64,000 nucleotides of DNA from Clostridia bacterium (GCA_017399065.1 JAFQEL010000034.1:280-64279); one strand, 5' to 3'; numbered from the stretch's first letter, positions 47,120 through 64,000 are shown. Notes: generated by a model from the sequence alone, not told the origin. A program made the numbers and translations.

Positions 47120-48214
47120 TCACCATCTGTTTTCCACATACTCGCAGAATGTGAAAAGGTCTTTTATTTCGAGCTTTGTGCCGTCATCGAGAGTTACGTC
47201 ACCGTTCCATACACCGTAAACCTGGTGACAATTCATCCTGCCTATTTTCAAATCTACATCAGAATGGTTATCAAAAGTAGGCTGCATTGTCATATTGAAT
47301 CTGCCGTCCTCCGATATAAATTCCCACGGCTCAAGAAATCTGCCTTTGGGGAACTTCTTAACATCTACAGCACCGATCTTATGCACCTTTCCGTCATAGA
47401 AAAGGCAGGTTTCCGTAGCGTGGCTCTCATCACCTATCGCCCAGGTTATCTCAAAGCCGAAGAGATGCTTTTCGCCCTTGTCGTCTGTTATATACTGACT
47501 GCCGCAGCCCCAATACCACACCATTTTATGTATGGTATTGACTCTGCCCCAATCGAGCGCACAAAAAGCTTTATCCTTAGTAAATTCGTAAACATAGTCG
47601 CCGACTTTAAACTTACCTTCGCACGGCATACAAACCTGCTTGGTCGTCATAAAGTACTTTGTTTTGTGACCTTCAAAAGGAAAAACGGTTGTAATGCTTT
47701 CAAGCTCTTCGGGAATTTCCATAGTAGCGGTAACTTCAACGGGTTTTCCTTTGTACTCACCCTTATACCAGAGCGTACGCTCGTTCTCTTTTGTGTGAAA
47801 GTCAAGCTCTGTTTTGCCGATTTTATCTTTATAGCGTGAGGGTGAATCGGGCTTGGAATGACAAACGTGTTTATTTGCACCTGCAAAATATGCAACGGAG
47901 TCACAAATAACCTCACCTGTTCTGAGGTTAATAAGTCTTGCCGCAGCATAGCCGCCGATATTTATGTTTGCAAAGCTGACAAGAATCTGCATTTCATCAT
48001 CGGCGATAGTATAAAAATCCCACTCTTTTCTGCTGATTATACCCTTTCTGACATAGTCACGGTTATATTCAAACAGATTTTTTCTTGCCCATCCCTTTGC
48101 AAGCAAGGTGCCATCGGGGGAGAGCAAAGGTGTAGGCTCGGTATATTCGGTCTGTTTTGACTTTTCTTTCCAATCCGTAAAAGGAACGTAAGTTTTTTTC
48201 AACTCGCCGCTCAT
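47120..48214 (-). CDS. DUF2804-like protein
   Basis: Size (364 aa) and ..GWARKNLFEYNRD..RKEWDFYTI.. N-terminal pattern match my recollection of the family. Unverified. Confidence 0.5.
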   Translation of the reverse strand: MSGELKKTYVPFTDWKEKSKQTEYTEPTPLLSPDGTLLAKGWARKNLFEYNRDYVRKGIISRKEWDFYTIADDEMQILVSFANINIGGYAAARLINLRTGEVICDSVAYFAGANKHVCHSKPDSPSRYKDKIGKTELDFHTKENERTLWYKGEYKGKPVEVTATMEIPEELESITTVFPFEGHKTKYFMTTKQVCMPCEGKFKVGDYVYEFTKDKAFCALDWGRVNTIHKMVWYWGCGSQYITDDKGEKHLFGFEITWAIGDESHATETCLFYDGKVHKIGAVDVKKFPKGRFLEPWEFISEDGRFNMTMQPTFDNHSDVDLKIGRMNCHQVYGVWNGDVTLDDGTKLEIKDLFTFCEYVENRW

Positions 48215-49335: not shown

Positions 49336-50508
49336 TCACTTTCTGAACACAGATACAACTTTGCTTATCGCTTTGTATGCAGGTACTTCGAGCACTTTTT
49401 CGGCTTCTTTCAGCTGATTGCGTATCTCGATGCTCTGAGGACAATGGGTTTCGCATTTACCGCAACCGATACAGGCTGAAGCAGGTGCTGATTTGCCCTT
49501 GGTTGTACATTTGACATACTCTCTGAAGCCTGCAAAATTGCCGTCGGCAAAATGTCGGTTGTAAGCAGAAAAAGTACCGCTGATATTGATATTCTGAGGG
49601 CACGGCATACAGTATTCACAGCCCGTACAGCCGACCTTCATTTTAGAGTTGATAGCATTTACAACTCTTTTCAGCATCTCTTCATCGTTAGCGGTCAGTT
49701 CACCGATTTCCGTCTCTGATGCGGTCTTTATGTTATCTGCCACCATTTCATCGGAATTCATACCCGAAAGCACTACGCTGACTTCAGGCTGATTCCACAG
49801 CCAGCGAAAAGCCCACTGTGCAGGCGTATGCTGAACGGGATGTTTTAAAAATATATCCTTTGCCTCTGAAGGAAGATTATTGACAAGACGGCCGCCGCGG
49901 AGAGGCTCCATAATCATAACAGGAATTCCTTTTTCGTGCGCATGGTTGAGGCCCTTACGGCCTGCCTGAGTATGTTCATCCATATAATTGTACTGAATGA
50001 GGCACATATCCCAGTCGTAAGCATCTATAATCTTACAGAACATATCGGATTTACCGTGATATGAAAAGCCGACCTGACGGATTGCTCCGCTTTTTTTCTT
50101 ATCCTCTATCCATTTTTCAATACCGATACTTTTCAGACGTTCCCAGACCTTTATATCCGCCATCATATGCATAAGATAAAAATCTATATGGTCAGTACGT
50201 AATCTTTTCAGCTGCTCATTAAAAAGCTTATCAAGTATTTCTGTGCTGCGCATAAGCTGAGGAGGAAGCTTTGTTGCGATATACACCTTATCACGGATAT
50301 TATTCTTCTCAAAAATTTCGCCTATCGCAGATTCACTGCCAGGATATATGAAGGCTGTATCAAAGTAATTGACGCCGTTATTGAAAGCATTCATTACCTG
50401 ACGCTCGGCATCAGCCATATTGATTCTGCCCATTTTCTTTTTGAAACGCATACATCCGAAGCCTAAAACAGAAAGCTTATTGCCGTATTTATCCTCTCGG
50501 TATTTCAT
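49336..50508 (-). CDS. Aldo/keto reductase fused to a C-terminal 2x[4Fe-4S] ferredoxin-like domain
   Basis: AKR N-terminus (..LGFGCMRF..YFDTAFIYPGSE..) and C-terminal CTGCEYCMPC / CIGCGKCETHC clusters. ATG 50508 lies 6 nt after GGAGG. The track's 50526 is a TTG. Confidence 0.75.
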   Translation of the reverse strand: MKYREDKYGNKLSVLGFGCMRFKKKMGRINMADAERQVMNAFNNGVNYFDTAFIYPGSESAIGEIFEKNNIRDKVYIATKLPPQLMRSTEILDKLFNEQLKRLRTDHIDFYLMHMMADIKVWERLKSIGIEKWIEDKKKSGAIRQVGFSYHGKSDMFCKIIDAYDWDMCLIQYNYMDEHTQAGRKGLNHAHEKGIPVMIMEPLRGGRLVNNLPSEAKDIFLKHPVQHTPAQWAFRWLWNQPEVSVVLSGMNSDEMVADNIKTASETEIGELTANDEEMLKRVVNAINSKMKVGCTGCEYCMPCPQNINISGTFSAYNRHFADGNFAGFREYVKCTTKGKSAPASACIGCGKCETHCPQSIEIRNQLKEAEKVLEVPAYKAISKVVSVFRK

Positions 50509-50592
50509 GACCGACCTCCGAGCCAAACATTTTTCTATTTTATAATATAAATTATATCATATATTAATTTTATATTCAACAGAACATACATA

Positions 50593-50648: not shown

Positions 50649-51725
50649 TCAGTTAACCTTAACAATCCAGTTAAGCTTGTCTTCCTTCTTACCCCACTGG
50701 ATACCTGTAAGCTCATCATAAAGGAACTGAGCAACAGGACCGATCTTGGAATCATTGATAACAAGGTGCTCGTCGCCGTCGATATACTCACCTACAGGTG
50801 AAATAACAGCTGCTGTGCCTGTGCCGAAGGACTCTGTAAGCTTGCCTGCCTTGTAAGCTTCTTTGACTTCGTCAACAGAAAGCTTTCTTTCCTCAACCTT
50901 ATAGCCGTTTGCCTTAAGAACCTCGATACAAGAAGCTCTTGTAACACCGGGAAGGATGTTGCCGTCTTCAAGGGTCGGAGTGATAACAACGTCGTCAATT
51001 ACAAAGAATACGTTCATTGCACCTACTTCGTCGATATACTTTCTTTCAACACCGTCAAGCCAGAGAACCTGAGCATAGCCCATCTTATCAGCCTTTTCCT
51101 GACCGATAAGAGATGCAGCGTAGTTACCGCCTGCCTTAGCCATACCTGTACCGCCCTTTACGCAGCGGACATACTCTCTCTCGATATAGATCTTAACGGG
51201 ATCCATACCGTTAGCGTAATATGAGCCAACGGGAGAAAGGATGATGCAGAAAATATAGCTGTGAGAAGCGTGAACACCAAGGAAAGCATCTGTTGCGATG
51301 ATGAAGGGACGGATGTAAAGAGATGTTCCGTCACTGTGGGGAACCCAATCCTTATCTACATCAACAACAGCCTTGATAGCCTCAAGAGCGAGGTCGGGGT
51401 CAATACGCGGAACGCAAAGGCGGTCGCAAGTATTGTTCATTCTCTCGATATTCTTCTGAGGACGGAAAAGCTGTATGCTGCCATCAGCAACTCTGTAAGC
51501 CTTAAGACCCTCAAAAAGCTCCTGTGCATAGTGGAAAACCATTGATGACGGATCGAGAGCGAGAGGGCCGTAGGGAACGATTCTGCCGTCGTGCCAGCCC
51601 TGACCCTCATCATAATTCATTACAAACATATGGTCTGTAAAGATTTTACCGAAGCCGAGCTTGCTTTCGTCTGCGGGCTTTGCCTTGGGAGCAGTAGTTT
51701 TTTCTATTTTAAAATTGTAGCTCAT
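50649..51725 (-). CDS. ilvE: Branched-chain amino acid aminotransferase
   Basis: 358 aa from ATG 51725 (AAGAGG RBS). ..FEGLKAYR.. and ..GGTGMAKAGGNYAASL.. are class IV aminotransferase motifs. The track's longer ORF overlaps the upstream gene. Confidence 0.9.
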   Translation of the reverse strand: MSYNFKIEKTTAPKAKPADESKLGFGKIFTDHMFVMNYDEGQGWHDGRIVPYGPLALDPSSMVFHYAQELFEGLKAYRVADGSIQLFRPQKNIERMNNTCDRLCVPRIDPDLALEAIKAVVDVDKDWVPHSDGTSLYIRPFIIATDAFLGVHASHSYIFCIILSPVGSYYANGMDPVKIYIEREYVRCVKGGTGMAKAGGNYAASLIGQEKADKMGYAQVLWLDGVERKYIDEVGAMNVFFVIDDVVITPTLEDGNILPGVTRASCIEVLKANGYKVEERKLSVDEVKEAYKAGKLTESFGTGTAAVISPVGEYIDGDEHLVINDSKIGPVAQFLYDELTGIQWGKKEDKLNWIVKVN

Positions 51726-51750
51726 TGAAAATACCTCTTTTAAATTAATC

Positions 51751-52281
51751 TCAATAATCATAACCGAGCTTGAGAGCTGTTTTGTTAACTTCAAGAAGGT
51801 TCTGATGACGTGCAGATACAACCTTTGACAAGGGAGCATCGATACCGTCGAAACCGAGCATCGGGACTTCTTTGAGAAGCTTACCTGTTATGATCATATT
51901 TGCAAGTGTGCTGATGCCTTTTTCGTTTGCAATCTCTGTTGCGGGAATATAGTAAACGTCAACGTCTGTTCTTTCAACCTTACGGGAAATAAGTGTTGAA
52001 TCGACAAAGATCTTACCGCCCGAAACAACCTCGTTTTCGTATCTGTCAAGTGAGGGAAGGTTCATTGCAACAAGAACATCAGGATTGCTGACGATCGGTG
52101 AACCGATAGGCTCATCGCTTACGATAACACTGCAGTTTGCTGTACCGCCGCGCATTTCGGGGCCGTAGGACGGGAGCCAGGAAACCTGCTTGTTTTCAAG
52201 AAGACCCTTGTAAGCAACAAACTTACCTGCAAAAAGGATACCCTGACCGCCGAATCCGGCAAAAAGAATATTACAGCTCAT
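51751..52281 (-). CDS. 2-oxoacid:ferredoxin oxidoreductase, gamma subunit
   Basis: [20 protein letters not shown].. is the canonical gamma N-terminus. ATG 52281 lies immediately after the beta stop. Confidence 0.85.
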
Positions 52282-52282
52282 A

Positions 52283-53041
52283 TTATTTTGCCTCCTCTTC
52301 TGCATAGATATCTTTATAAACACCGAGAGGATAGTAAGGAAGCATATTTTCCTCAAGCCACTCGAGTGCTTTTACAGGTGTCATACCCCAGTTTGTAGGA
52401 CAGGTTGAAACAACCTCAATAAGAGAGAAGCCTTTGCCTTCAATCTGGTTCTGGAAAGCCTTTTTGATAGCTTTCTTTGCCTTTTTTATGTTTGCGGGAC
52501 TGTTGACTGCAACTCTTTCAAGATAAGCTGCACCGTCAACTTTTGAGAGAAGCTCGCAAACCTTTACGGGATAGCCGACTGTCTCAACATCTCTGCCGTA
52601 AGGAGAGGTCTGAGTAACCTGACCGGGAAGAGTTGTCGGAGCCATCTGACCGCCTGTCATACCGTAAATAGCGTTGTTAACGAAAATTACAGTGATATTC
52701 TCTCTTCTTGCTGCTGCGTGAACTGTTTCTGCAGTACCGATAGCTGCAAGGTCACCGTCACCCTGATATGTAAATACAATATTGTTTTCAGGGTCTGCAC
52801 GCTTGACACCTGTTGCAACAGCCGGTGCTCTGCCGTGAGGAGCCTGAACAAAATCAACATCAAAATAATCGTAAGCCATAACGGAGCAACCAACGGGTGC
52901 TACACCGATTGTTCTGCCCTGAATACCAAGCTCGTCAATTGCTTCGGCAACAAGTCTGTGAATAATACCGTGTGTACAACCGGGGCAATAGTGGAGAGTT
53001 GCATCTGTCAATGACTTGGGTTTTTCAAATACTATAGCCAT
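52283..53041 (-). CDS. 2-oxoacid:ferredoxin oxidoreductase, beta (TPP-binding) subunit
   Basis: ..YCPGCTHG.. Cys motif and [12 protein letters not shown]-binding motif. Confidence 0.9.
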
Positions 53042-54105
53042 TATTTATTGCCTCCTTCATTGACTTTTTCTATCTTTGCAAGAACCTCTTCGGGAGAAGG
53101 AATCATACCGCCTACGCGGTTGCAAAGATATACGGGCTTCTTGCATTCGATAGCAAGCTGAATGTCTTCAATCATCTGACCCATATTCATTTCAACGGAA
53201 ATAAATGCCTTGCACTTATCTGCAGCTGCATTAAGAACCTTGTTGGGGAACGGCCAGAGAGTGATAGGACGAATCATGCCTACCTTGATGCCCTTTGCTC
53301 TTGCTTCTACGATTGCATTCTTAGCTACACGGGCTGTAATGCCGAAAGAAACAACGCAGATTTCTGCATCTTCCATTAAGTACTCTTCGTAAAGAACTTC
53401 GTTCTCTTCTATTTCTTTATAGCGCTCATAACGCTCAAAGTTTGTCTTTTCAAGTTCTTCCGGCTTAAGGTAAAGAGAGTTGACAATGTTATGCTTTCTC
53501 TCGCCTTTTGTGCCTGTAAGTGCCCAGGGCTTATCAAATGTTTTTGCGTTGGGCTCAGGAAGCTCAACGGGCTCCATCATCTGACCCATAGTACCGTCAG
53601 CAAGAATCATAGCAGGCATTCTGTACTTATCTGCAAGATCAAATGCAGTTGAAGTAAGAGAAGCCATTTCCTGAACTGATGACGGTGCAAGAACAATCTT
53701 CTTGAAGTCGCCGTGGCTTCCGCCCTTAACTGCCTGGAAATAGTCCGACTGTGAAGGCTGGATACCGCCGAGGCCGGGGCCGCCGCGCTGAACATTGACA
53801 ATAAGTGCAGGAAGATCAGAGCCTGCAAGATATGAAATACCTTCGCTCTTAAGAGATACACCCGGGCTTGATGATGATGTCATAACACGCTTACCTGTTG
53901 CGGCAACACCAAGCACCATATTTACGGCAGCAATTTCACTTTCTGCCTGAAGGAATACGCCGCCGATCTTAGGCATACGTTTTGCCATATAAGCAGCGAT
54001 TTCTGTCTGAGGAGTAATAGGATAACCGAAGTAGTGCATACAGCCTGCTCTGATAGCAGCTTCAGCAATAGCCTCGTTACCTTTCATTAAAACTTTCTCA
54101 CCCAT
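53041..54105 (-). CDS. 2-oxoacid:ferredoxin oxidoreductase, alpha subunit (VorB/KorA-like)
   Basis: ..[25 protein letters not shown].. canonical alpha N-terminus. Confidence 0.9.
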
Positions 54106-54116
54106 TTATTTTCACC

Positions 54117-54323
54117 TTACCTTTCAACCGTAATTGCACAGTCAGGACACATTGTTGCACAGAAAGCGCAACCGATGCACTGACTCTCATCAACACAATG
54201 TGCAGGATGATGTCCCTTTGCATTAAGCTTTGCAGAGTCAAGCTCTACTATCTTTTTAGGACAAACTGTGACGCATAAGCCACAGCCCTTGCATACATTT
54301 TCTGCGAATGTTACTTTTGCCAT
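54117..54323 (-). CDS. 2-oxoacid:ferredoxin oxidoreductase, delta subunit (2x[4Fe-4S] ferredoxin)
   Basis: CKGCGLCVTVCP and CIGCAFCATMCP. ATG 54323 lies 9 nt after GGAGG. Confidence 0.85.
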   Translation of the reverse strand: MAKVTFAENVCKGCGLCVTVCPKKIVELDSAKLNAKGHHPAHCVDESQCIGCAFCATMCPDCAITVER

Positions 54324-54352
54324 TTTTTCTGCCTCCATTCAAAGAAAAAATC

Positions 54353-55015
54353 TTAAACTATCTTTTTTTGTAAAGTCAGCGGAAACAGATTCGGGATCTT
54401 TCCGTTGAGATTATTAACTAAATCTGCTGTTACTGTTGTCATTTTTACGGGAAGCTGAGAAATCTCACTTAACCTCTCTGCCTCGGCAACAGAACTTAAA
54501 ACGTCTTCAGGAGTTGTAAGCCCACCGAGATTCGAATTGTTTACAATAGCGGTGAAGCTGATTTTGCCTGCCGCCTCTATCTCGCGCATAATTTCAATAG
54601 CATCCTCTGCTGTAGGAGTAAGGGGTCTGTACTTATTGAAAACAAAAAGCATTTCGTAATCGTTTTCGTCTTTTATGTAATCGGCGTAACGGCCTAAAGC
54701 ATAAGCACCGCGGTCATCGCCGCCGATATCCATTATAGCACTTTCTCCCTGTTTGTCAAAAATCGAATAGACCTCCTGAGGCAGTGCGGGTAAATCGACA
54801 TTGGATGAAGCAAACTCGGAGGATATAAGGCGTATTCCTGCCTGAGTCAGCTCATCAATACTGTCTCTTGTGCGGAAATAGGGATTGACAATATCAAGGT
54901 CTGCAACAACAACGTCTTTGCCGAGATTTTTAAGATAAAAAGCATAGTTGACTGCTATGTTTGTTTTACCCGAGCCGTAATGGCCTGCTAACAGCGTAAC
55001 ACGTTTGCTTTGCAT
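54353..55015 (-). CDS. P-loop NTPase of the MinD/ParA/CooC (SIMIBI) type, unknown role
   Basis: Deviant Walker A LLAGHYGSGKTN, ..VVADLDIVNPYF... Embedded between the acyl-CoA synthetase and the oxidoreductase genes. Confidence 0.6.
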   Translation of the reverse strand: MQSKRVTLLAGHYGSGKTNIAVNYAFYLKNLGKDVVVADLDIVNPYFRTRDSIDELTQAGIRLISSEFASSNVDLPALPQEVYSIFDKQGESAIMDIGGDDRGAYALGRYADYIKDENDYEMLFVFNKYRPLTPTAEDAIEIMREIEAAGKISFTAIVNNSNLGGLTTPEDVLSSVAEAERLSEISQLPVKMTTVTADLVNNLNGKIPNLFPLTLQKKIV

Positions 55016-55036: not shown

Positions 55037-57325
55037 TTATAATTTGTTTCTCATTATCTTGCCGCTTGTTGTTTTGGGAAGCTCATCTCTGAACACAACA
55101 ATTCGCGGATATTTGTAAGGAGCTGTTTTCGCCTTAACGTACTGCTGAATATCCTTCTTGAGCTCCTCTGTAGGCTCTGTGCCCTTGACAAGAACAATGC
55201 TTGCCTTTACAACCTGACCGCGCACCTCATCGGGAGCGGCTGAAACACCGCACTCAAGAACATAAGGAAGCTCCATAATAACACTTTCGATTTCAAACGG
55301 GCCTATACGGTAGCCTGATGACTTGATAACGTCATCAACACGGCCGACGTACCAATAGAAACCGTCTTCATCCTGCCATGCAACGTCGCCGGTGTGATAA
55401 TAGCCGTCGTGCCAGACTTCTTTGGTTTTGGCTTCGTCATTGTAGTAGCCTGTGAACAGACCGCAGGGAGCACCGTCCTTGACGTTGACAACGATTTCGC
55501 CGTTTTCACCGACGGGCACTTCGTTGCCGTCGTTATCAACGAGCTTAACGTCATAAATCGGAGCAGGTTTACCCATTGAGCCGATTTTATGGTCTGCACC
55601 GGTCATATTACCGATAATCATTGTGCTTTCGGTCTGACCGAAGCCCTCGAGAATCTGAAGACCCGTTGCCTTTTCAAACTGGCGGTAAACCTCGGGGTTA
55701 AGAGCCTCACCTGCTGTTGTCATATGCTTGACAGAAGAGAAATCGTAATTCGAAATATCCTGCTTGATCATCATTCTGAGCATTGTGGGCGGTGCACAGA
55801 AGGTTGTGATATGATGCTTTGCAAACATCGGTAAGATATCTGCTGCATCAAATCTGTCAAAGTCGTAAACAAAGGTTGCTGCCTCACAAAGCCACTGGCC
55901 ATATAGCTTACCCCACATTGACTTAGCCCAGCCTGTATCGGAAATTGTAAAATGAAGACCGTCAGGGTCAACATTGTGCCAATACTTTGCCGTATGGAAA
56001 TGGCCTAAAGCATATTTATAGTTGTGAGCTGCAATTTTTGGATAACCTGTTGTGCCTGATGTGAAGAACATAAGCATAAGGTCGTCTCCACCTGGAGCAT
56101 TCTCTCCTCTTTCGTAGTGAGTGCTGTAAAGAACTCTTTCCTCGTCGAAGTTTCTCCAGCCTTCTCTTTCACCGTTGACAATAATCTTGTGTTCAAGTGA
56201 AGGACAGGTTCTTGCAGCTAAATCTACCTGATGAGCTGTATCACCGTCTGCAGTGCAAAGAATAGCTTTGACGCCTGCAGCCTGGAAGCGGTACTCAAAG
56301 TCGTGCTCCTGAAGCTGATTCGGTGCGGGAATTGCAACAGCACCCAGCTTATTGAGACCAATCATAGCGTACCAGTACTGATAATGGCGCTTAAGAACGA
56401 GCATAACTCTGTCGCCTTTTTTGATGCCAAGGGATTTGAAATAGTTAGCTGCCTGAGCAGAGCCTTTCTTCATATCCTTGAAAGTAATACGTCTTTCGGT
56501 CTTGTCTCGTGAAATATGAAGCATTGCAAGCTTTTCCGGTTCTTTGTCTGCAAGCTCATCTACAAGGTCAAAAGCAAAATTGAAATTTTCTGTATTCTTG
56601 AACTTAATTGATGTCGGAGTACCCTTTTCATTCTCAACAACATCAACATACTTCTGGTAAATACGCTTTTTTGTATCCTTGACGGTTGACTTTGTATCCT
56701 TAACCTTCTTAGCAGGCTGAAGCTCAGGAATAGGCTCGCCCGAAGGATTAAGAACGATAGCATAGAAGGTACAGTCCTTACCGTCAACAGCAATCATGCC
56801 GTGAGGTGTAAGTGAATCGTAATAAATGCTGTCGCCGGGACCAAGGATTTCGGAATGTTCGCCGACCTGAACCTTAAGCTTACCTTCAATAACAATATCA
56901 AGCTCCTGACCGTCGTGAGATGTTAGCTCAATATCCTTATTCTGATTTTCTTCGCTGTATGTAGCTTCAACAAAAAGAGGCTCGGCAATTTTGTTCTTGA
57001 ATTTTGCAGCAAGGTTGAAATATGTCATACCGTGTGCTTTTTCAATTTTCTGACCCTTACCTGCCTTTGTGAAAACGTAGTTGGTGAGCTTGGGAGTACT
57101 ACCCTCGATGATACTTGTAACATCAACATTAAAAGCTAACGCACAGCGGTAGATAAAAGCAAAGTTAAGATCACTCTCGCCGTTTTCACAAGCAAGATAT
57201 TCACCCTCGGAAACACCTGTTTTCTCAGCCATCTGGGCTGCGGTATATCCTTCAATTTCACGAAGCTCTCTGATTCTGGCGGCCATTTCCTTGATTTTAA
57301 AATCAAGACCCGTCATTTTCTCCAT
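55037..57325 (-). CDS. XRE-type HTH plus cupin sensor domain fused to an AMP-forming (medium/short-chain) acyl-CoA synthetase; copy 1
   Basis: aa 1-70: ..RIRELREIEGYTAAQMAEKTGVSEGEYLACENG.. (HTH_3). aa ~120-200: cupin (..GDSIYYDSLTPHGM..). Then FFTSGTTGYPK, YHTGD, GRVDDVIKSSGYRIGPFEIE and PKTTSGKIMR. ATG 57325 lies 8 nt after AGGAGG. Confidence 0.85.
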   Translation of the reverse strand: MEKMTGLDFKIKEMAARIRELREIEGYTAAQMAEKTGVSEGEYLACENGESDLNFAFIYRCALAFNVDVTSIIEGSTPKLTNYVFTKAGKGQKIEKAHGMTYFNLAAKFKNKIAEPLFVEATYSEENQNKDIELTSHDGQELDIVIEGKLKVQVGEHSEILGPGDSIYYDSLTPHGMIAVDGKDCTFYAIVLNPSGEPIPELQPAKKVKDTKSTVKDTKKRIYQKYVDVVENEKGTPTSIKFKNTENFNFAFDLVDELADKEPEKLAMLHISRDKTERRITFKDMKKGSAQAANYFKSLGIKKGDRVMLVLKRHYQYWYAMIGLNKLGAVAIPAPNQLQEHDFEYRFQAAGVKAILCTADGDTAHQVDLAARTCPSLEHKIIVNGEREGWRNFDEERVLYSTHYERGENAPGGDDLMLMFFTSGTTGYPKIAAHNYKYALGHFHTAKYWHNVDPDGLHFTISDTGWAKSMWGKLYGQWLCEAATFVYDFDRFDAADILPMFAKHHITTFCAPPTMLRMMIKQDISNYDFSSVKHMTTAGEALNPEVYRQFEKATGLQILEGFGQTESTMIIGNMTGADHKIGSMGKPAPIYDVKLVDNDGNEVPVGENGEIVVNVKDGAPCGLFTGYYNDEAKTKEVWHDGYYHTGDVAWQDEDGFYWYVGRVDDVIKSSGYRIGPFEIESVIMELPYVLECGVSAAPDEVRGQVVKASIVLVKGTEPTEELKKDIQQYVKAKTAPYKYPRIVVFRDELPKTTSGKIMRNKL

Positions 57326-57350
57326 TGATTCAACCTCCTGGTTTATGGGA

Positions 57351-57630
57351 CAAAACATAAAAACCCGTCCCAAAGATATCTTTGAGACGAGTTATATATA
57401 ACCCGCGGTACCACTCAAATTGCAGTAATAACTGCCACTCTCAAGGTCTGTCAACCTCTATGCATTAACGCAGCAATCACGGAGAGGTTCTACTGAGCAC
57501 AAACGCCGTTCTTCCTCCCGGCTCAGAAACTACAAACAACAGAAACCTTGCTATGACTTGCACCGACCGTCATTTCTCTATAAAGCTTGGTATACTGTGC
57601 CCTTTTCTTCAACGCCTTTACTATTCAACT
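57351..57630 (-). promoter_or_regulatory. T-box riboswitch leader 1 (specifier read as GUA, Val)
   Basis: Minus strand. K-turn GGC-GUU-GA..GA-GCC, AGAGA bulge, GGUCGGUGCAA distal loop, UGCGUUA F-box. T-box AAUUUGAGUGGUACCGCGG (57421..57403). Terminator CGUCUCAAAGA..UCUUUGGGACG plus U-run. Confidence 0.8.
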
Positions 57631-57636
57631 TTCTCA

Positions 57637-57665
57637 AAGATACCACAACTGTTTTGAAAAGTCAA
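57637..57665 (-). promoter_or_regulatory. Promoter of T-box leader 1
   Basis: Minus strand TTGACT, 17-nt spacer ending in TG, TATCTT. Confidence 0.45.
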
Positions 57666-57690
57666 TACATTATTTAATATATATTATATA

Positions 57691-59976
57691 TTAAAGCTTG
57701 TTTCTCATAATTTTACCGCTGATTGTTTTCGGGAGCTCATCTCTGAAAACAACAATTCTCGGATATTTATAAGGAGCCGTATTTTTCTTGACGTATTCCT
57801 GAATCTCTTTCTTGAGTTCCTCTGTCGGCTCAGTACCCTTGGTAAGAACAATGCTTGCCTTGACAACCTGACCGCGGACCTCATCGGGAGCAGCTGAAAC
57901 ACCGCACTCAAGAACATACGGAAGCTCCATAATAACGTTTTCTATTTCGAACGGACCGATACGATAGCCCGATGACTTGATAACGTCATCAACACGGCCG
58001 ACATACCAGAGATATCCGTCTTCATCACGCCAAGCAGTATCACCTGTATGATAAAGGCCGTCGTGCATAGCCTCACCGGTTTTTTCTTCATCGACTTCAC
58101 AGCCTTTATAGTAGCCAAGGAACAGTCCACACGCATTTTTATCGCCCAACCTTACAACAATTTCGCCTGTTTCACCGTCTGCAACAGACCTGCCGTCAGG
58201 ATCGACAACATCGATATTATAAAGAGGTGTAGGTCTACCCATAGCACCGATTTTGATCTTTGAGCCATTAAGGTTTGCAATTGACAGAGTAGTTTCAGTC
58301 TGACCGAATCCCTCGTGAATTCTGAGACCCGTTACCTTTTCGAACTGCTTGAAAACCTCCGGATTAAGAGCTTCACCTGCCGTAGTTGCGTGCTTTATTG
58401 AGGACAAATCGTACTGTGAAATATCCTGCTTGATAAGCATTCTGTACATTGTGGGAGGTGCACAGAATGTTGTGATGTTGTATTTTGCAAACATAGGAAG
58501 AATCTTCGAAGCATCAAAACGCTCGAAGTCATAAACAAACACACAGCCCTCGCAAAGCCACTGTCCGTAGAGTTTACCCCACAGTGCTTTACCCCAGCCT
58601 GTTTCTGAAATCGTGAAATGGACACCGTCACGCTGTACACAGTGCCAATATTTTGCTGTAATAAAATGACCAAGAGGATACTTGTGGCTGTGAGCAGCAA
58701 TTTTCGGATAGCCTGTTGTACCTGAGGTGAAGAGCATAATCATCGGGTCATCACCGCAGGCAGCATCTGCTTCACGGACAAAACGTCTGCTGAAAAGGCC
58801 GAACTCCTCATCGAAATTATGCCAGCCCTCTTTTGAGCCGTTAGCAACAATTTTGGTTTTAAGAGTAGGACAATTTTTTTGAGCCTCGTCTATATAATCT
58901 GTTGCCTTACCGTCTGCAGTAACTACAACTGCACTTACACCTGCTGCATTGAAGCGGTATTCATAGTCGTGCACAACAAGCTGATTTGTTGCAGGAATCG
59001 CAATCGCACCGAGCTTATGGAGGCCGAGAATAGCAAACCAGAACTGATAGTTACGCTTAAGCACAAGAAGAACTCTGTCACCCTTCTTGATACCTAAAGA
59101 TTTAAAGTAGTTAGCTGCCTGAGAGGAATATTCTTTCATTTCCTTGAAAGTAAATTTGCGTTCTGTCATATCGTCTGAAATATGAATCATCGCGAGCTTC
59201 TCAGGATATGTTCTGCCGATTTTATCAATAACGTCAAATGCAAAGTTAAAGCTGTCTTCGTAATTGAACTCAATGCTGTTACAGACACCGTTTTCATCAA
59301 CAGTTGTTTTGATGAATTTGTCACAGATAAGCTTATCTTCTGCAGTAGATTTACCTGTATTGACAGTGCTCATATGGTTATCTGCAAGCTTCTCATCCTC
59401 CGCCATAACCATAGCAAGGAAAAGACAATCTTCACCGTCAACAGCTATCATACCGTGAGGAATAGAGCTGTTGTAGAATATACTGTCGCCCTCGTGAAGA
59501 ATTTCAACGTGCTCACCTACCTGAACCTTAAGAGCACCCTTTACAACAAGATCAAACTCCTGACCGGAGTGAGTTGTAACCTCAATAGGCTTTGACTGAA
59601 GCTCACTGGAATACTCGTATTTTACCCAGTAGGGATTGGCGAGCTTATTTTTAAACTTGGGAGCAAGGTTCTGAATAAGAATACCTTCTTCATTCGCTGT
59701 TACCTGACCCTGTCCGCGTCTTGTAACATTATAGGTTGTGAGCTTTGCACTCTGACCCTCAAGAATGTCTGTAAGCTCAACGCCAAAAGCCAATGCGCAC
59801 TTATGAACAAATGAGAAAGGCATATCCTCCATACCGTTTTCGTATGCAAGATATTCTTCGATACTTACGCCTGTTTTATCAGCCATTTCAATATCTGATA
59901 AATTATAAATGTCGCGGAGCTCTTTAATTCGCTCGGCCACCTCTACCAGTTTGTTTTCATAAGAATTGTTAAGCAT
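57691..59976 (-). CDS. XRE-type HTH plus cupin sensor domain fused to an AMP-forming acyl-CoA synthetase; copy 2 (paralogue)
   Basis: Same architecture as copy 1 (..RIKELRDIYNLSDIEMADKTGVSIEEYL.., ..GDSIFYNSSIPHGM.., LFTSGTTGYPK, GRVDDVIKSSGYRIGPFEIE, PKTISGKIMR). Confidence 0.85.
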   Translation of the reverse strand: MLNNSYENKLVEVAERIKELRDIYNLSDIEMADKTGVSIEEYLAYENGMEDMPFSFVHKCALAFGVELTDILEGQSAKLTTYNVTRRGQGQVTANEEGILIQNLAPKFKNKLANPYWVKYEYSSELQSKPIEVTTHSGQEFDLVVKGALKVQVGEHVEILHEGDSIFYNSSIPHGMIAVDGEDCLFLAMVMAEDEKLADNHMSTVNTGKSTAEDKLICDKFIKTTVDENGVCNSIEFNYEDSFNFAFDVIDKIGRTYPEKLAMIHISDDMTERKFTFKEMKEYSSQAANYFKSLGIKKGDRVLLVLKRNYQFWFAILGLHKLGAIAIPATNQLVVHDYEYRFNAAGVSAVVVTADGKATDYIDEAQKNCPTLKTKIVANGSKEGWHNFDEEFGLFSRRFVREADAACGDDPMIMLFTSGTTGYPKIAAHSHKYPLGHFITAKYWHCVQRDGVHFTISETGWGKALWGKLYGQWLCEGCVFVYDFERFDASKILPMFAKYNITTFCAPPTMYRMLIKQDISQYDLSSIKHATTAGEALNPEVFKQFEKVTGLRIHEGFGQTETTLSIANLNGSKIKIGAMGRPTPLYNIDVVDPDGRSVADGETGEIVVRLGDKNACGLFLGYYKGCEVDEEKTGEAMHDGLYHTGDTAWRDEDGYLWYVGRVDDVIKSSGYRIGPFEIENVIMELPYVLECGVSAAPDEVRGQVVKASIVLTKGTEPTEELKKEIQEYVKKNTAPYKYPRIVVFRDELPKTISGKIMRNKL

Positions 59977-60013: not shown

Positions 60014-60302
60014 CAAAAAAAAACGCCCCAAAAAGAAATTCAACATTTCTCTTTGAGACGAATTATAAAATCCGCGGTACCACTCAAATTGCAAGCAAAG
60101 CCTGCCGCTCAGGGGTCTATCAACCCTTTTGCACTAACGCAGCATTCTCGGAAGAAGCCTACTGGGAAACCGTTCGGTTCTTCAACTCGGAAGGGATAGG
60201 TTATTAAAACAAGGTACTGTTGGCTCGCAGCAACCGCCAACTCTCTGAAAGTCCATAGTTTCAACCGTCTTCGTCATAGTTTTTACTTGAGATATGAAAT
60301 TT
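60014..60302 (-). promoter_or_regulatory. T-box riboswitch leader 2 (specifier read as AUC, Ile; less certain)
   Basis: Minus strand. K-turn AAC-UAU-GA..GA-GUU, AGAGAG bulge, GGUUGCUGCGA distal loop, UGCGUUA F-box. T-box AAUUUGAGUGGUACCGCGG (60090..60072). 16-bp terminator plus U9. Confidence 0.8.
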
Positions 60303-60308
60303 GGATAA

Positions 60309-60337
60309 ATAATATCACAATGTAATTTTGGTGTCAA
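60309..60337 (-). promoter_or_regulatory. Promoter of T-box leader 2 (divergent from the leader 3 promoter)
   Basis: Minus strand TTGACA, 17-nt spacer, TATTAT. Confidence 0.5.
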
Positions 60338-60429: not shown

Positions 60430-60720
60430 ATATTTTTTATATTTGTTAAATGCTACGAAGGAATTACGTCTTTTTGGTACGGCAGTTCAGAGAGTTGACG
60501 GCAGGTGCAAGTCAATCTGTTACAAAAATTCGGTCTCGTTCCGGAGCAGAGCTCCCCAACCGCTTACGGCATGTAAGGAGCTACGGACGCCCCGTTATCA
60601 TGGCTACAGGCTTTTTAGAGCCTTAATGAGTGACTGCTTTTGCAGTAACCGGGGTGGTACCGCGGATTTTGAAATTCGTCCCTGAGGTCATATTACAGTG
60701 ACCTCAGGGCTTTTATTTAT
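60430..60720 (+). promoter_or_regulatory. T-box riboswitch leader 3 (specifier CUC, Leu)
   Basis: K-turn UGC-UAC-GA (60451-60458) .. GA-GCA (60544-60548), AGAGAG bulge, GGCAGGUGCAA distal loop, CCGUUA F-box. T-box AACCGGGGUGGUACCGCGG (60647-60665). Terminator CCCTGAGGTCA..TGACCTCAGGG plus a T-run. Confidence 0.85.
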
Positions 60721-62170: not shown

Positions 62171-64000
62171 ATGAAGCTTTCTTTTTCAACTAAGGGTTGG
62201 CACGGATATTCATGGGATGAACTCTGCAACATAGCAGAAAAACAAGGTTTCAACGGTATTGAGCTCCATAATATCAACAACTCTTCATTCAACGAAAAAA
62301 ACGGTGCATTTTATTCAACCTCCGCTCAGGCAACAGTCAGAAATATGTACGAGAAGAATCTCAGAATTCCTTGTATTGACACCCTCGCAAACTCTGCCTG
62401 TGTAGAGGACAGAGAAGCTTTTACAAAAGAGCTTGATAAATGCCTTGAGATTGCCTGCACTCTTCATATCCCCTACGTACGTATTAAGGCAACTGACACA
62501 GGTGCAGATTACGACACACAGAAAAATGAGGTTATAAGCGTACTTTCAGCAATCATTCCCAAGGCTGAAAAATTAGGTGTTACAATCATCATTGAAACAG
62601 CAGGTATTTTTGCTGACACATCAAAGCTTCTTGAGGTGCTCAACACCTTTGCCTGTGACAGCCTTGCTGCTCTGTGGGACGTTTATTCAACTTACTTTAT
62701 AGCAAAAGAAGAGCCTGAAATCACAATCAAAAACCTTGGTGCATACGTTAAGCACGTACACATAAAGGATGCTGTCAGTGAAGACGGTGCCCTCACCTAC
62801 TGTCTTATCGGCGAAGGTGAGCTTCCGATTAACGAGGTTGTACTGTCACTCACATCTGTTAACTACAACGGTTATGCATCAATAGAATGGGATCCCAAAT
62901 GGATGCCTGAGCTTGATGATATGGAGATCATCTTCTCTCACTACGTGAGCTTTATGGCTCGTTTCGGTAACACCTCAAGAGGTAAGAAAAACCTTTTCTG
63001 GAACAAAACACATACAGGTAACTACGTCTGGAAAAAGGAAACTCTTATCGAAAAGACCTTCTCACAGGTGCTTGATAAAATGGTTGAGGAATTCCCTGAC
63101 CAATACGCTTTCAAATACACAACTCTCGATTACACAAGAACATATTCTCAGTTCCGCGATGACGTTGACGAGTGCTGCCGTGCATTCCTTGCTCTCGGCG
63201 TAAAGCCCGGCAGTCACGTTGCCGTATGGGCAACTAATGTTCCTCAGTGGTATATTGCTTTCTGGGCAGCAACAAAAATCGGTGCTGTTCTTGTTACAAT
63301 GAACACAGCGTACAAAATTGCTGAAGCAGAGTATCTTCTCAAGCAGTCTGACACACATACACTTATTCTTATTGACGGCTGGAGAGATTCCAACTACAAC
63401 GAAATAATCGGTCAGCTTTGTCCTGAGCTTGAAAACACTGTACCCGGCGAACCTCTTCATTCAAAGAGACTTCCGTTCCTCAGAAACGTTATTACAGTCG
63501 GTTTCAAGAAAAAAGGCTGCCTTACCTGGGATGAGGCTATTGCAAGAGCATCCGAAGTTCCTGTTGAAGAGGTTTACAGAATTGCAGCTAACGTTGACGT
63601 AAACGACGTATGTAATATGCAGTACACCTCAGGTACAACAGGCTTCCCCAAGGGCGTTATGCTCACTCACTACAATATCGTTAATAACGGTAAGAATATC
63701 GGCGACAGAATGGATCTTTCAACCGCTGACAGAATGATGATTCAGGTACCTATGTTCCACTGCTTCGGTATGGTTCTCGCAATGACCGCAACAATGACAC
63801 ACGGCGGCACAATATTCCCTCTCCCCTACTTTTCACCCAAGCCGTCTCTTGCCTGCATCAACAACGAAAGAATCACCGCATTCCACGGTGTTCCTACAAT
63901 GTTTATTGCTCTGCTTGAGCATCCTGACTTCCCAAAGACTGATTTCTCATATATGAGAACAGGTATTATGGCAGGCAGCCCTTGTCCGATTTCTGTTATG
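62171..64000 (+). CDS. Fusion of a xylose-isomerase-like TIM barrel (sugar phosphate isomerase/epimerase, AP_endonuc_2 type) and an AMP-dependent acyl-CoA ligase; 3' end beyond the window
   Basis: Absent from the ORF track (no stop). I read 610 uninterrupted codons from ATG 62171. N-terminal ~285 aa: MKLSFSTKGWHG..GIELHN..VRIKA..IIIETAG..HIKD..SIEWD. From ~63050: ..FSQVLDKMVEEFPDQYAF.., YTSGTTGFPKGVMLTH, ..GVPTMF... Confidence 0.75.
   Translation, partial: MKLSFSTKGWHGYSWDELCNIAEKQGFNGIELHNINNSSFNEKNGAFYSTSAQATVRNMYEKNLRIPCIDTLANSACVEDREAFTKELDKCLEIACTLHIPYVRIKATDTGADYDTQKNEVISVLSAIIPKAEKLGVTIIIETAGIFADTSKLLEVLNTFACDSLAALWDVYSTYFIAKEEPEITIKNLGAYVKHVHIKDAVSEDGALTYCLIGEGELPINEVVLSLTSVNYNGYASIEWDPKWMPELDDMEIIFSHYVSFMARFGNTSRGKKNLFWNKTHTGNYVWKKETLIEKTFSQVLDKMVEEFPDQYAFKYTTLDYTRTYSQFRDDVDECCRAFLALGVKPGSHVAVWATNVPQWYIAFWAATKIGAVLVTMNTAYKIAEAEYLLKQSDTHTLILIDGWRDSNYNEIIGQLCPELENTVPGEPLHSKRLPFLRNVITVGFKKKGCLTWDEAIARASEVPVEEVYRIAANVDVNDVCNMQYTSGTTGFPKGVMLTHYNIVNNGKNIGDRMDLSTADRMMIQVPMFHCFGMVLAMTATMTHGGTIFPLPYFSPKPSLACINNERITAFHGVPTMFIALLEHPDFPKTDFSYMRTGIMAGSPCPISVM

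Follow-up and report, generated by a model that had tools for sequence, protein, structure and literature searches.

XRE-cupin transcription factors such as PuuR, PauR, PsdR and ErfA consist of an XRE-type helix-turn-helix (HTH) followed by a cupin_2 barrel, together about 185 amino acids (aa). Characterized members are dimeric local repressors that bind palindromes, and sensing of a pathway precursor by the cupin frees them from the DNA (PMC7901475). Trigger enzymes such as BirA, PutA and NadR carry a DNA-binding-type fold that is fused to an enzyme of the same pathway, and operator binding has been demonstrated for them. BirA is also adenylate-forming. On the enzymatic side, the best structurally solved relative of the ligase half of the proteins analyzed here is MacsMa (PDB entry 3ETC), a Methanosarcina acetivorans medium-chain acyl-CoA synthetase with 2-methylbutyrate as preferred substrate and with Trp259 as a critical residue of the acyl pocket (PMC10455477). 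Here we describe a stretch of 64,000 nucleotides (nt) from a Clostridia bacterium (GCA_017399065.1 JAFQEL010000034.1:280-64279), called the window in the following, which encodes two proteins that combine an XRE-type HTH and a cupin with a complete ligase of this kind. The fusion is real and widespread, and its HTH-cupin part, referred to as the module, is very probably a dedicated partner of this ligase family, of which the window holds the fused form.

An initial annotation of the window had noted two tandem open reading frames (ORFs) of about 760 aa, each joining an HTH and a cupin to a complete adenylate-forming enzyme. Indeed, both genes are present on the minus strand. Gene A (57691..59976) starts with ATG and is an uninterrupted ORF of 761 aa, and gene B (55037..57325), also uninterrupted, starts with an ATG and encodes 762 aa. 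The longest ORF of gene B begins at a TTG (55037..57373). We rejected this TTG, which falls within the terminator hairpin of the upstream T-box, and because AGGAGG precedes the ATG at 57325, the latter is the likely start. The two translations show the same four-domain Pfam architecture, and every match exceeds the curated Pfam cut-off, so that the domain searches support both the HTH and the cupin. In gene A we found HTH_19 (1.2e-9) and HTH_3 (5.3e-5; aa 15-74), Cupin_2 (5.8e-11; aa 134-189), AMP-binding (1.6e-65; aa 255-623) and AMP-binding_C (3e-21; aa 677-755). Gene B gave HTH_19 (1.1e-8), HTH_3 (1.5e-7) and HTH_31 (1.3e-6), followed by Cupin_2 (2.5e-11), AMP-binding (3.6e-65) and AMP-binding_C (5.3e-21). 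Approximate spans common to both are 15-74 for the HTH, 132-190 for Cupin_2, 255-625 for AMP-binding and 677-756 for AMP-binding_C. The ligase domains score 221.9 and 220.7 bits for AMP-binding (A and B; cut-off 29.9) and 76.5 and 75.8 bits for AMP-binding_C (cut-off 24.5). The ligase motifs quoted in the initial annotation, TSGTTGYPK, YHTGD, GRVDDVIKSSGYRIGPFEIE and SGKIMR, occur in both translations, and the core motifs of the ANL superfamily (TSGTTGxPK, GxGQTE, YHTGD, GRxDDxIKxxGxxIxPxEIE and PKTxSGKIxR with the catalytic Lys) are intact in A and B.

On the DNA, the XRE-type HTH domain of gene A (aa 10-75; HTH_19 and HTH_3, five helices in an AlphaFold2 model) covers 59752..59949 and the cupin beta-barrel (aa 91-191; Cupin_2, strands of the same model, invariant columns and Foldseek matches) 59404..59706. 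A linker (aa 192-216; 59329..59403) with 0% invariant columns and low model confidence leads to the ligase half at 57691..59328, which is delimited by AMP-binding, AMP-binding_C and the alignment to MacsMa. In gene B, the HTH lies at about 57098-57295, the cupin at about 56750-57052 and the ligase at 55037-56662, again on the minus strand.

Fused genes of this type are not restricted to the window. An identical protein was deposited independently (P0121), and all 120 relatives among the matches listed, that is, the identical protein and 119 close relatives, share the same Pfam architecture. We further identified 80 loci in different species-level genomes with a co-linear match to residues 1-761. 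The architecture is thus present in at least 80 species-level gut Oscillospirales genomes, assigned to Acutalibacteraceae, Oscillospiraceae, Faecousia, Ruminococcus and Limivicinus and mostly metagenome-assembled genomes from gut or rumen; the locus closest to the window, with 95% identity, is labelled Acutalibacteraceae. From these 80 loci 132 full-length, uninterrupted fused ORFs could be extracted. More divergent fused proteins, with a module identity of 40-50%, likewise occur in tandem pairs. Since the same architecture recurs in at least 80 species-level genomes, the fusion is not an assembly artefact. A count of 487 relatives in species genomes includes possible ligase-only matches and is not a fusion count. 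In protein searches at least 8,000 related sequences were found; the partnership of module and ligase is hence abundant in gut microbiomes, and it also occurs as separate genes in other phyla. Full-text literature searches found context papers only, concerned with XRE-cupin regulators, MacsMa and amino-acid synthesis in the rumen, and no paper describing the HTH-cupin-ligase fusion or its operon. The initial annotation had called the architecture unusual for a CoA ligase, and we agree: the fusion is unstudied, and databases label it merely 'AMP-binding protein'.

The relation between the two halves is best seen in relatives of the module that are not fused. With residues 1-205 as query, 1.84 billion representative proteins were searched exhaustively, which returned 2,017 hits at E <= 0.001. 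The closest matches were fused proteins or fragments thereof; below about 42% identity, many hits were proteins of 183-190 aa that align over residues 7-191. Seven of these stand-alone relatives (31-44% identity; Bacillota and Bacteroidota, the latter with Prolixibacteraceae and one other) were checked for their neighborhood. In all seven loci, the module gene is located directly upstream of a ligase gene on the same strand, with a gap of 12-20 nt. The neighboring AMP-binding ligases have about 550-560 aa. The complete ones are 46-53% identical to the fused ligase half, with alignments that start at about residue 217 of the fusion, and the two truncated ones still match the ligase N-terminus. 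The genes surrounding these pairs are wholly different between loci. The module belongs to a distinct subfamily, whose members in other phyla have a gene of their own, of about 185 aa, directly upstream of a ligase of this type. Because the stand-alone module precedes a same-family ligase in seven of seven cases across phyla, we consider it highly probable that the module is dedicated to this ligase family as a partner. Such a 'Rosetta stone' pattern, with split as well as fused forms, is an argument for joint action of module and ligase. The module is also under purifying selection, with 15% invariant columns in the HTH, 28% in the cupin and 0% in the linker among the 132 fusions.

One of the stand-alone pairs (L093 4001-6232, and likewise L094) lies on a Bacteroidota contig within an arginine-biosynthesis cluster. 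In L093 the order is ArgR, a semialdehyde dehydrogenase, a P5CR-like gene, the module-ligase pair, DUF2007 and an OTCase-like gene. This context suggests that the module-ligase unit was recruited to other amino-acid pathways.

By sequence, the ligase half has its best PDB relative in 3ETC (E 1.2e-183), to which it aligns from end to end. To transfer residue numbers we fixed the offset of MacsMa via Gly459-Tyr460-Lys461 (PMC10455477). The pocket residue W259 then corresponds to W466 in gene A and is conserved in gene B. Together with the full alignment of the ligase half and the ANL motifs, this assigns A and B to medium-chain acyl-CoA synthetases of the MacsMa type, which also has relatives in S. 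aureus MbcS and human ACSM2A. Unlike our proteins, the deposited 3ETC chain (580 aa) has no HTH-cupin part and aligns to the ligase half only. The best NCBIfam match was the equivalog model for the methylbutyryl-CoA synthetase MbcS (NF047394). Scores of 430.9 and 440.0 bits against a cut-off of 850 rule out that A and B are MbcS orthologs. Over their full length and including the N-terminal module, the A and B proteins are 64% identical. In a distance tree of the 132 fusions, all first or single genes (A clade) fall cleanly apart from all second genes (B clade), and A and B are therefore paralogs from one old duplication, both of which retained the module. Thirteen positions separate A-type from B-type proteins, three of them Gly/Ala swaps in the ligase. 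At positions 462 and 567 the A-type has the MacsMa residue and the B-type a different one; position 462 lies one helical turn ahead of the pocket Trp. From the T-box specifiers, the operon content and these pocket residues, we propose that gene A encodes a 2-methylbutyrate-CoA ligase and gene B an isobutyrate-CoA ligase.

For the module itself, an AlphaFold2 model of residues 1-210, based on 121 sequences, reached a mean predicted local distance difference test (pLDDT) of 85.2 and shows five helices (aa 3-73) followed by a beta-barrel (aa 91-191), in line with the fold expected from the domain calls. In a full-length model, aa 195-213 of the linker stay below 50 and are predicted to be disordered. 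The cupin residues H136, G138, E140, D164, H174 and G175 show no variation among the 132 fusions, and the His/Glu/His pattern is kept in four of four stand-alone relatives aligned and in PuuR. The H-x3-E...H spacing corresponds to a 2-His-1-carboxylate site. The cupin core (aa 126-192) contains none of the 13 positions at which A and B differ by type, and therefore any cupin ligand is probably common to both paralogs. The initial annotation had suggested that the cupin could sense the fatty acid or the amino-acid product. The cupin fold stands, and sensing of a pathway-specific compound is weakened by this distribution. Eight of the 13 positions are located at aa 58-59 and 77-116, i.e., in helix 4, the linker following it and the first three strands. 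Such a paralog-specific surface is compatible with an interface, and one may speculate that it keeps A and B homodimers apart.

Taken these data, we tentatively favor that the module is a regulatory or oligomerization element acting at the protein level, a view held with somewhat less than even confidence. The module would work physically with the ligase at a stoichiometry of 1:1, as a regulatory and/or oligomerization module. Through its conserved His-x3-Glu...His site, the cupin would bind the same metal or small molecule in both paralogs and thereby tune ligase activity, and the HTH fold would persist for its structural value or as an interface and not as a classical operator reader. This comes close to an alternative given in the initial annotation, a co-opted allosteric domain, which fits better than the enzyme-repressor idea and is strengthened by the stand-alone modules encoded upstream of same-family ligases. 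One may go further, with more caution, and suppose that the module represents a previously unrecognized class of dedicated regulatory subunits of medium-chain acyl-CoA synthetases, which Bacteroidota and many Bacillota encode in a gene of its own and Oscillospirales as part of the ligase, in which a former DNA-binding fold was repurposed for protein-protein contact or as an interface and the conserved His/Glu/His site of the cupin would gate adenylation upon sensing a metal or a metabolite. ANL enzymes are known to be controlled by a lysine-acetylation switch, and such a subunit class, if true, would be a control mechanism separate from it. If the module does control ligase activity, this would be a kind of regulation new to a large enzyme superfamily.

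Several points weigh against a protein-level role. A contact between module and ligase could not be demonstrated, since the full-length AlphaFold2 model was too poor (pLDDT 65.7, predicted template modelling score 0.52, C-terminal half below 50, where the alignment is shallow) and was not used. The cupin ligand is putative, and since PuuR shares the His/Glu/His residues, the site does not tell a sensor from an enzyme. The HTH passes the Pfam thresholds (HTH_3, HTH_19 and HTH_31), and the module profile reaches genuine DNA binders, among them SinR, 434 repressor, DdrOC and C.AhdI. Every experimentally characterized XRE-cupin protein is a DNA-binding local repressor of its neighbors (PMC7901475), and the split arrangement of module followed by ligase also resembles a unit of repressor and target. 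In some clades, significant inverted repeats overlap promoter elements: the repeat ATTTGTGATAAT..ATTATCACAAAT in L006 and the repeat CATCTGCTCT..AGAGCAGATG in L017, which overlap the -10 or -35 element, were each matched by 0 of 30 shuffles. Finally, arguments from charge, as used below, are indirect, and the ligase half is acidic too.

As an alternative, the fusions may be bifunctional enzyme-repressors, which would dimerize through the cupin, bind with their HTH to an operator in their own promoter and leave it once the cupin has bound the fatty acid, the acyl-CoA or the amino acid. Both substrate, via HTH and cupin, and uncharged tRNA, via the T-box, would in this case be required for transcription, and the protein would be a new trigger enzyme in which the sensing of substrate is coupled to control by tRNA charging. 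In favor of this explanation, which we regard as possible although rather unlikely, each ligase gene has its own sigma-70-type promoter upstream of its T-box. For gene A this is TTGACA, a 17-nt spacer and TGaTATTAT (60309..60337, minus strand), and for gene B TTGACT, a 17-nt spacer and TGgTATCTT (57637..57665, minus strand); both were read from the sequence, the former with the same layout in orthologous loci and the latter conserved there. There is also a partial precedent in the acyl-CoA ligase FadD1 of P. aeruginosa, which is reported to be a receptor of cis-2-decenoic acid and to act as noncanonical transcriptional regulator, in an unrelated organism and pathway (PMC12754631).

The HTH itself speaks against this explanation. 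In the fusions, helix 3 has the consensus G-V-S-[E/V/L/I]-E-E-Y-x-x-[Y/C]-E-x-G, which we aligned on the E-x-G motif with 434 repressor and SinR. Where these two proteins contact bases, A has Ile/Glu/Glu/Ala and B has Glu/Gly/Glu/Ala, and among the 132 fusions Glu, hydrophobic or small residues prevail at positions 39-41 and 44. The mean net charge of the HTH region (aa 10-75) is -6.2, with a range of -12 to -2, and gene A carries -10 over aa 1-75. In 53 stand-alone relatives the mean is -5.1, and therefore the acidic HTH is a trait of the subfamily and no consequence of the fusion. For comparison, helix 3 of the proven repressor PuuR from E. coli reads THSAISTIE, and the net charge is -2. The initial annotation had described the domain pair as being of the PuuR type. 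This is correct for the architecture and does not extend to the family: E. coli PuuR and the module are about 20% identical (E 0.003), and the PuuR equivalog model (NCBIfam NF007408, cut-off 211) scores 16.5 and 17.6 bits on the modules and 385.5 bits on E. coli PuuR. Thus, the module shares with XRE-cupin factors the domain order, the His-x3-Glu...His residues of PuuR and the tendency to adjoin related metabolic genes. It differs from them in its acidic helix 3, in the failure of the PuuR model, in that no palindromic operator was found, and in being fused or translationally adjacent to one specific enzyme family.

The promoters point in the same direction. For each promoter, the top-scoring inverted repeat within the 100 nt preceding the T-box was compared to shuffles. 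Inverted repeats were barely above the shuffles (mean score 6.5 vs. 5.8), and 14% of the promoters stand out; the shuffles preserved mononucleotide composition only, so that top hits in A/T runs are over-called rather than under-called. Leaving A/T runs aside, a half-site with common spacer was shared by at most 5 of 38 A-type and 3 of 15 B-type non-redundant promoters. Neither the inverted-repeat nor the half-site test of the orthologous promoters revealed a family-wide operator motif. Clade-specific repeats did not covary with helix 3; in particular, B-type proteins with and without the repeat CATCTGC..GCAGATG in front of their genes share the same helix 3. Moreover, the module-ligase pair of L093 is located in the middle of an operon, with the module gene 5 nt after the preceding gene, and a repressor produced 1:1 with an abundant enzyme would be an awkward design. 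DNA binding by the HTH of the module is thus doubtful. Operator binding was demonstrated for BirA, PutA and NadR. In A and B the enzyme half looks competent and a DNA-binding fold is present, but the tests that could have supported operator binding were negative or ambiguous, and the enzyme-regulator idea of the initial annotation, modelled on BirA and PutA, received no positive support from the acidic helix 3, the HTH charge, the search for a common operator or covariation.

Some clade-specific repeats are nevertheless described here in their own right. In one A-type clade (window 60291-60320; L004-L030), an inverted repeat has the extended -10 element TTGTGATAAT as its left arm and ATTATCACAAAT, just before the start of the T-box, as its right arm. 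The right arm is constant while the spacer varies, and the window's own copy is degenerate (TTGTGATAT..ATATCTCAA). Some regulator might use this repeat as its operator, or the repeat might be an element of the leader RNA. The A-type promoters L061, L062, L075 and L040 contain ACAGAC-N4-6-GTCTGT with a variable center between -35 and -10, and the B-type promoters L017 and L022 contain CATCTGC-N15-GCAGATG around -35. Neither palindrome covaries with the fused HTH. A repeat TGTGATA..TATCACA, seen by eye in one clade, was discarded in the operator search, as its left arm is simply the extended -10 element.

The module might also be a structural relic, i.e., a former repressor that was fused to its target and now serves dimerization or solubility only, with no ligand sensing. 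On canonical models, the fused HTH obtains lower scores than stand-alone relatives: HTH_3 reaches 23.6 bits in A and 31.8 in B, compared to 49.5 and 30.1 in two stand-alone relatives, and the PuuR model gives 16-18 bits for fused and 29-46 bits for stand-alone modules. The lack of paralog-specific positions in the cupin core would fit as well. However, this core is strongly conserved, with its invariant H136, G138, E140, D164, H174 and G175, which argues for a maintained binding site, and the strict association with the ligase across phyla, split and fused, argues for a specific function. We therefore consider a mere relic improbable.

Even less probable is a catalytic cupin, a metal-dependent enzyme similar to HppE or HEPD that would act alongside the ligase and perform an additional reaction on the acid or the acyl-adenylate. 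In favor of this idea is a Foldseek search, in which the best whole-length matches of the module model were HppE (E 2.5e-14), Psf4, HEPD, MPnS and PhpD, with template modelling scores of about 0.45-0.5. All five are non-heme-iron enzymes that combine an HTH-like alpha-domain with a cupin, and HppE, Psf4, HEPD and MPnS have the same domain order and a compatible spacing of the metal ligands. A sequence search of the PDB with the module found only a 65-aa XRE protein. Further matches, to 1Y9Q, SinR, 434 repressor and HppE, had weak E-values in a profile search, which aligned module residues 135-182 to HppE 137-188. With His138, Glu142 and His180 as the iron ligands of HppE, this alignment would place H136, E140 and H174 on them. 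The HTH-like domain of HppE is not known to have a DNA-binding role, and this would be a precedent for employing such a pair of folds for something other than DNA binding. That the best matches are enzymes rather than regulators also counts against operator reading by the module. Against catalysis, the identity is about 18% with a root-mean-square deviation of about 12 A, and the orientation of the domains differs. The regulator PuuR keeps His/Glu/His, and the uncharacterized 1Y9Q, annotated as 'HTH_3 regulator', matches about equally well. Moreover, the window genes have no phosphonate context and the window proteins show no evidence of cupin catalysis, and the pathway proposed below needs no additional chemistry. 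Lastly, a merging of two genes through a sequencing or annotation error can be dismissed, given the two independent fusion copies within one window, the 132 unbroken ORFs from 80 other assemblies, the identical and near-identical proteins from several sources and the more divergent fused pairs, with nothing found in its favor.

The genomic context indicates what the ligases are used for. Genes A and B head an operon with a four-subunit 2-oxoacid:ferredoxin oxidoreductase and a branched-chain aminotransferase, all on the minus strand. Gene B is followed by a P-loop ATPase of the CbiA/MinD type (54353..55015; 220 aa; Pfam CbiA 2.5e-7, synteny) and by the delta subunit of the oxidoreductase, a 73-aa ferredoxin with two [4Fe-4S] clusters (54117..54338; ORF, Fer4_7 5.4e-12). 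The alpha, beta and gamma subunits occupy 51751..54105 (alpha 53041-54105, beta 52283-53041, gamma 51751 to about 52281; POR_N/PFOR_II, TPP_enzyme_C and POR, synteny). A class IV aminotransferase of the branched-chain type follows at 50649..51839 (Aminotran_4 2.5e-29); this is the longest ORF, and the true start is probably further downstream. The order of one or two fused ligases, ATPase and oxidoreductase recurs across the 80 loci where the contig is long enough. The ATPase is found between ligase and oxidoreductase genes in essentially all loci, and a role in cofactor insertion or maturation of the oxidoreductase is possible.

Each ligase gene is preceded by a T-box leader, as the initial annotation had assumed. 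The leader of gene A (60051..60286, minus strand; Rfam RF00230, 100.3 bits) has the specifier AUC for Ile, and that of gene B (57380..57621, minus strand; RF00230, 87.2 bits, E 8.5e-19, which is under the gathering score of 93) has GUA for Val. In the orthologous leaders, specifiers were read by a K-turn/helix rule applied to all 132 genes. First or single genes carry ATC (76 cases), and second genes carry GTA (33), GTC (6) or have no leader of their own; Rfam agreed with the specifier calls in a diverse sample of these leaders.

Branched-chain fatty acids have long been known as growth factors of rumen and gut Clostridia, and rumen bacteria classically use branched-chain volatile acids by carboxylation followed by amination. 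The operon would fit such a route. A branched-chain fatty acid obtained from the gut would be activated by the ligase; the oxidoreductase would reductively carboxylate the acyl-CoA to the 2-oxoacid and the aminotransferase would complete the amino acid, leading from 2-methylbutyrate to isoleucine in the case of gene A and from isobutyrate to valine in the case of gene B. Amino-acid-specific control of transcription would be supplied by the T-boxes. That rumen microbes carboxylate and then aminate branched-chain acids has been described (PMC7356843). The assignment of enzymes and pathway is very likely correct. The operon would then represent a complete genetic route by which branched-chain fatty acids are turned into isoleucine and valine, and each activating enzyme has an amino-acid-specific T-box of its own.

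Divergently to gene A, a leuA-like gene is preceded by a T-box (60446-60686, plus strand; Rfam, 98.1 bits) with the specifier CUC for Leu. Only 5 nt after its stop, a second type of ligase fusion begins (62171-64000, plus strand), which continues past the end of the window and shares the Leu T-box. Its protein combines an N-terminal AP_endonuc_2 domain (xylose-isomerase-like TIM barrel, 2.4e-22) with AMP-binding (6.9e-63). In most of the 80 loci, the pair of leuA-like gene and AP_endonuc_2-ligase fusion is conserved beside the ligase operon; in L097 the fusion has 827 aa. It might activate isovalerate for leucine.

On the same strand as the operon and past the aminotransferase, the window encodes a fusion of an aldo/keto reductase with a 4Fe-4S dicluster domain (49336-50526, minus strand) and a DUF2804 protein (47120-48214, minus strand). 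In a 2-kb profile, the segment 24001-26000 shows a dip in composition, with a GC content of 0.31 compared to about 0.42 elsewhere and a GC skew of +0.21. Outside the window, Rfam detected a Gut-1 small RNA next to two tRNAs (L046 3285-3359) and a ZMP/ZTP riboswitch downstream of the operon (L031 17114-17197).

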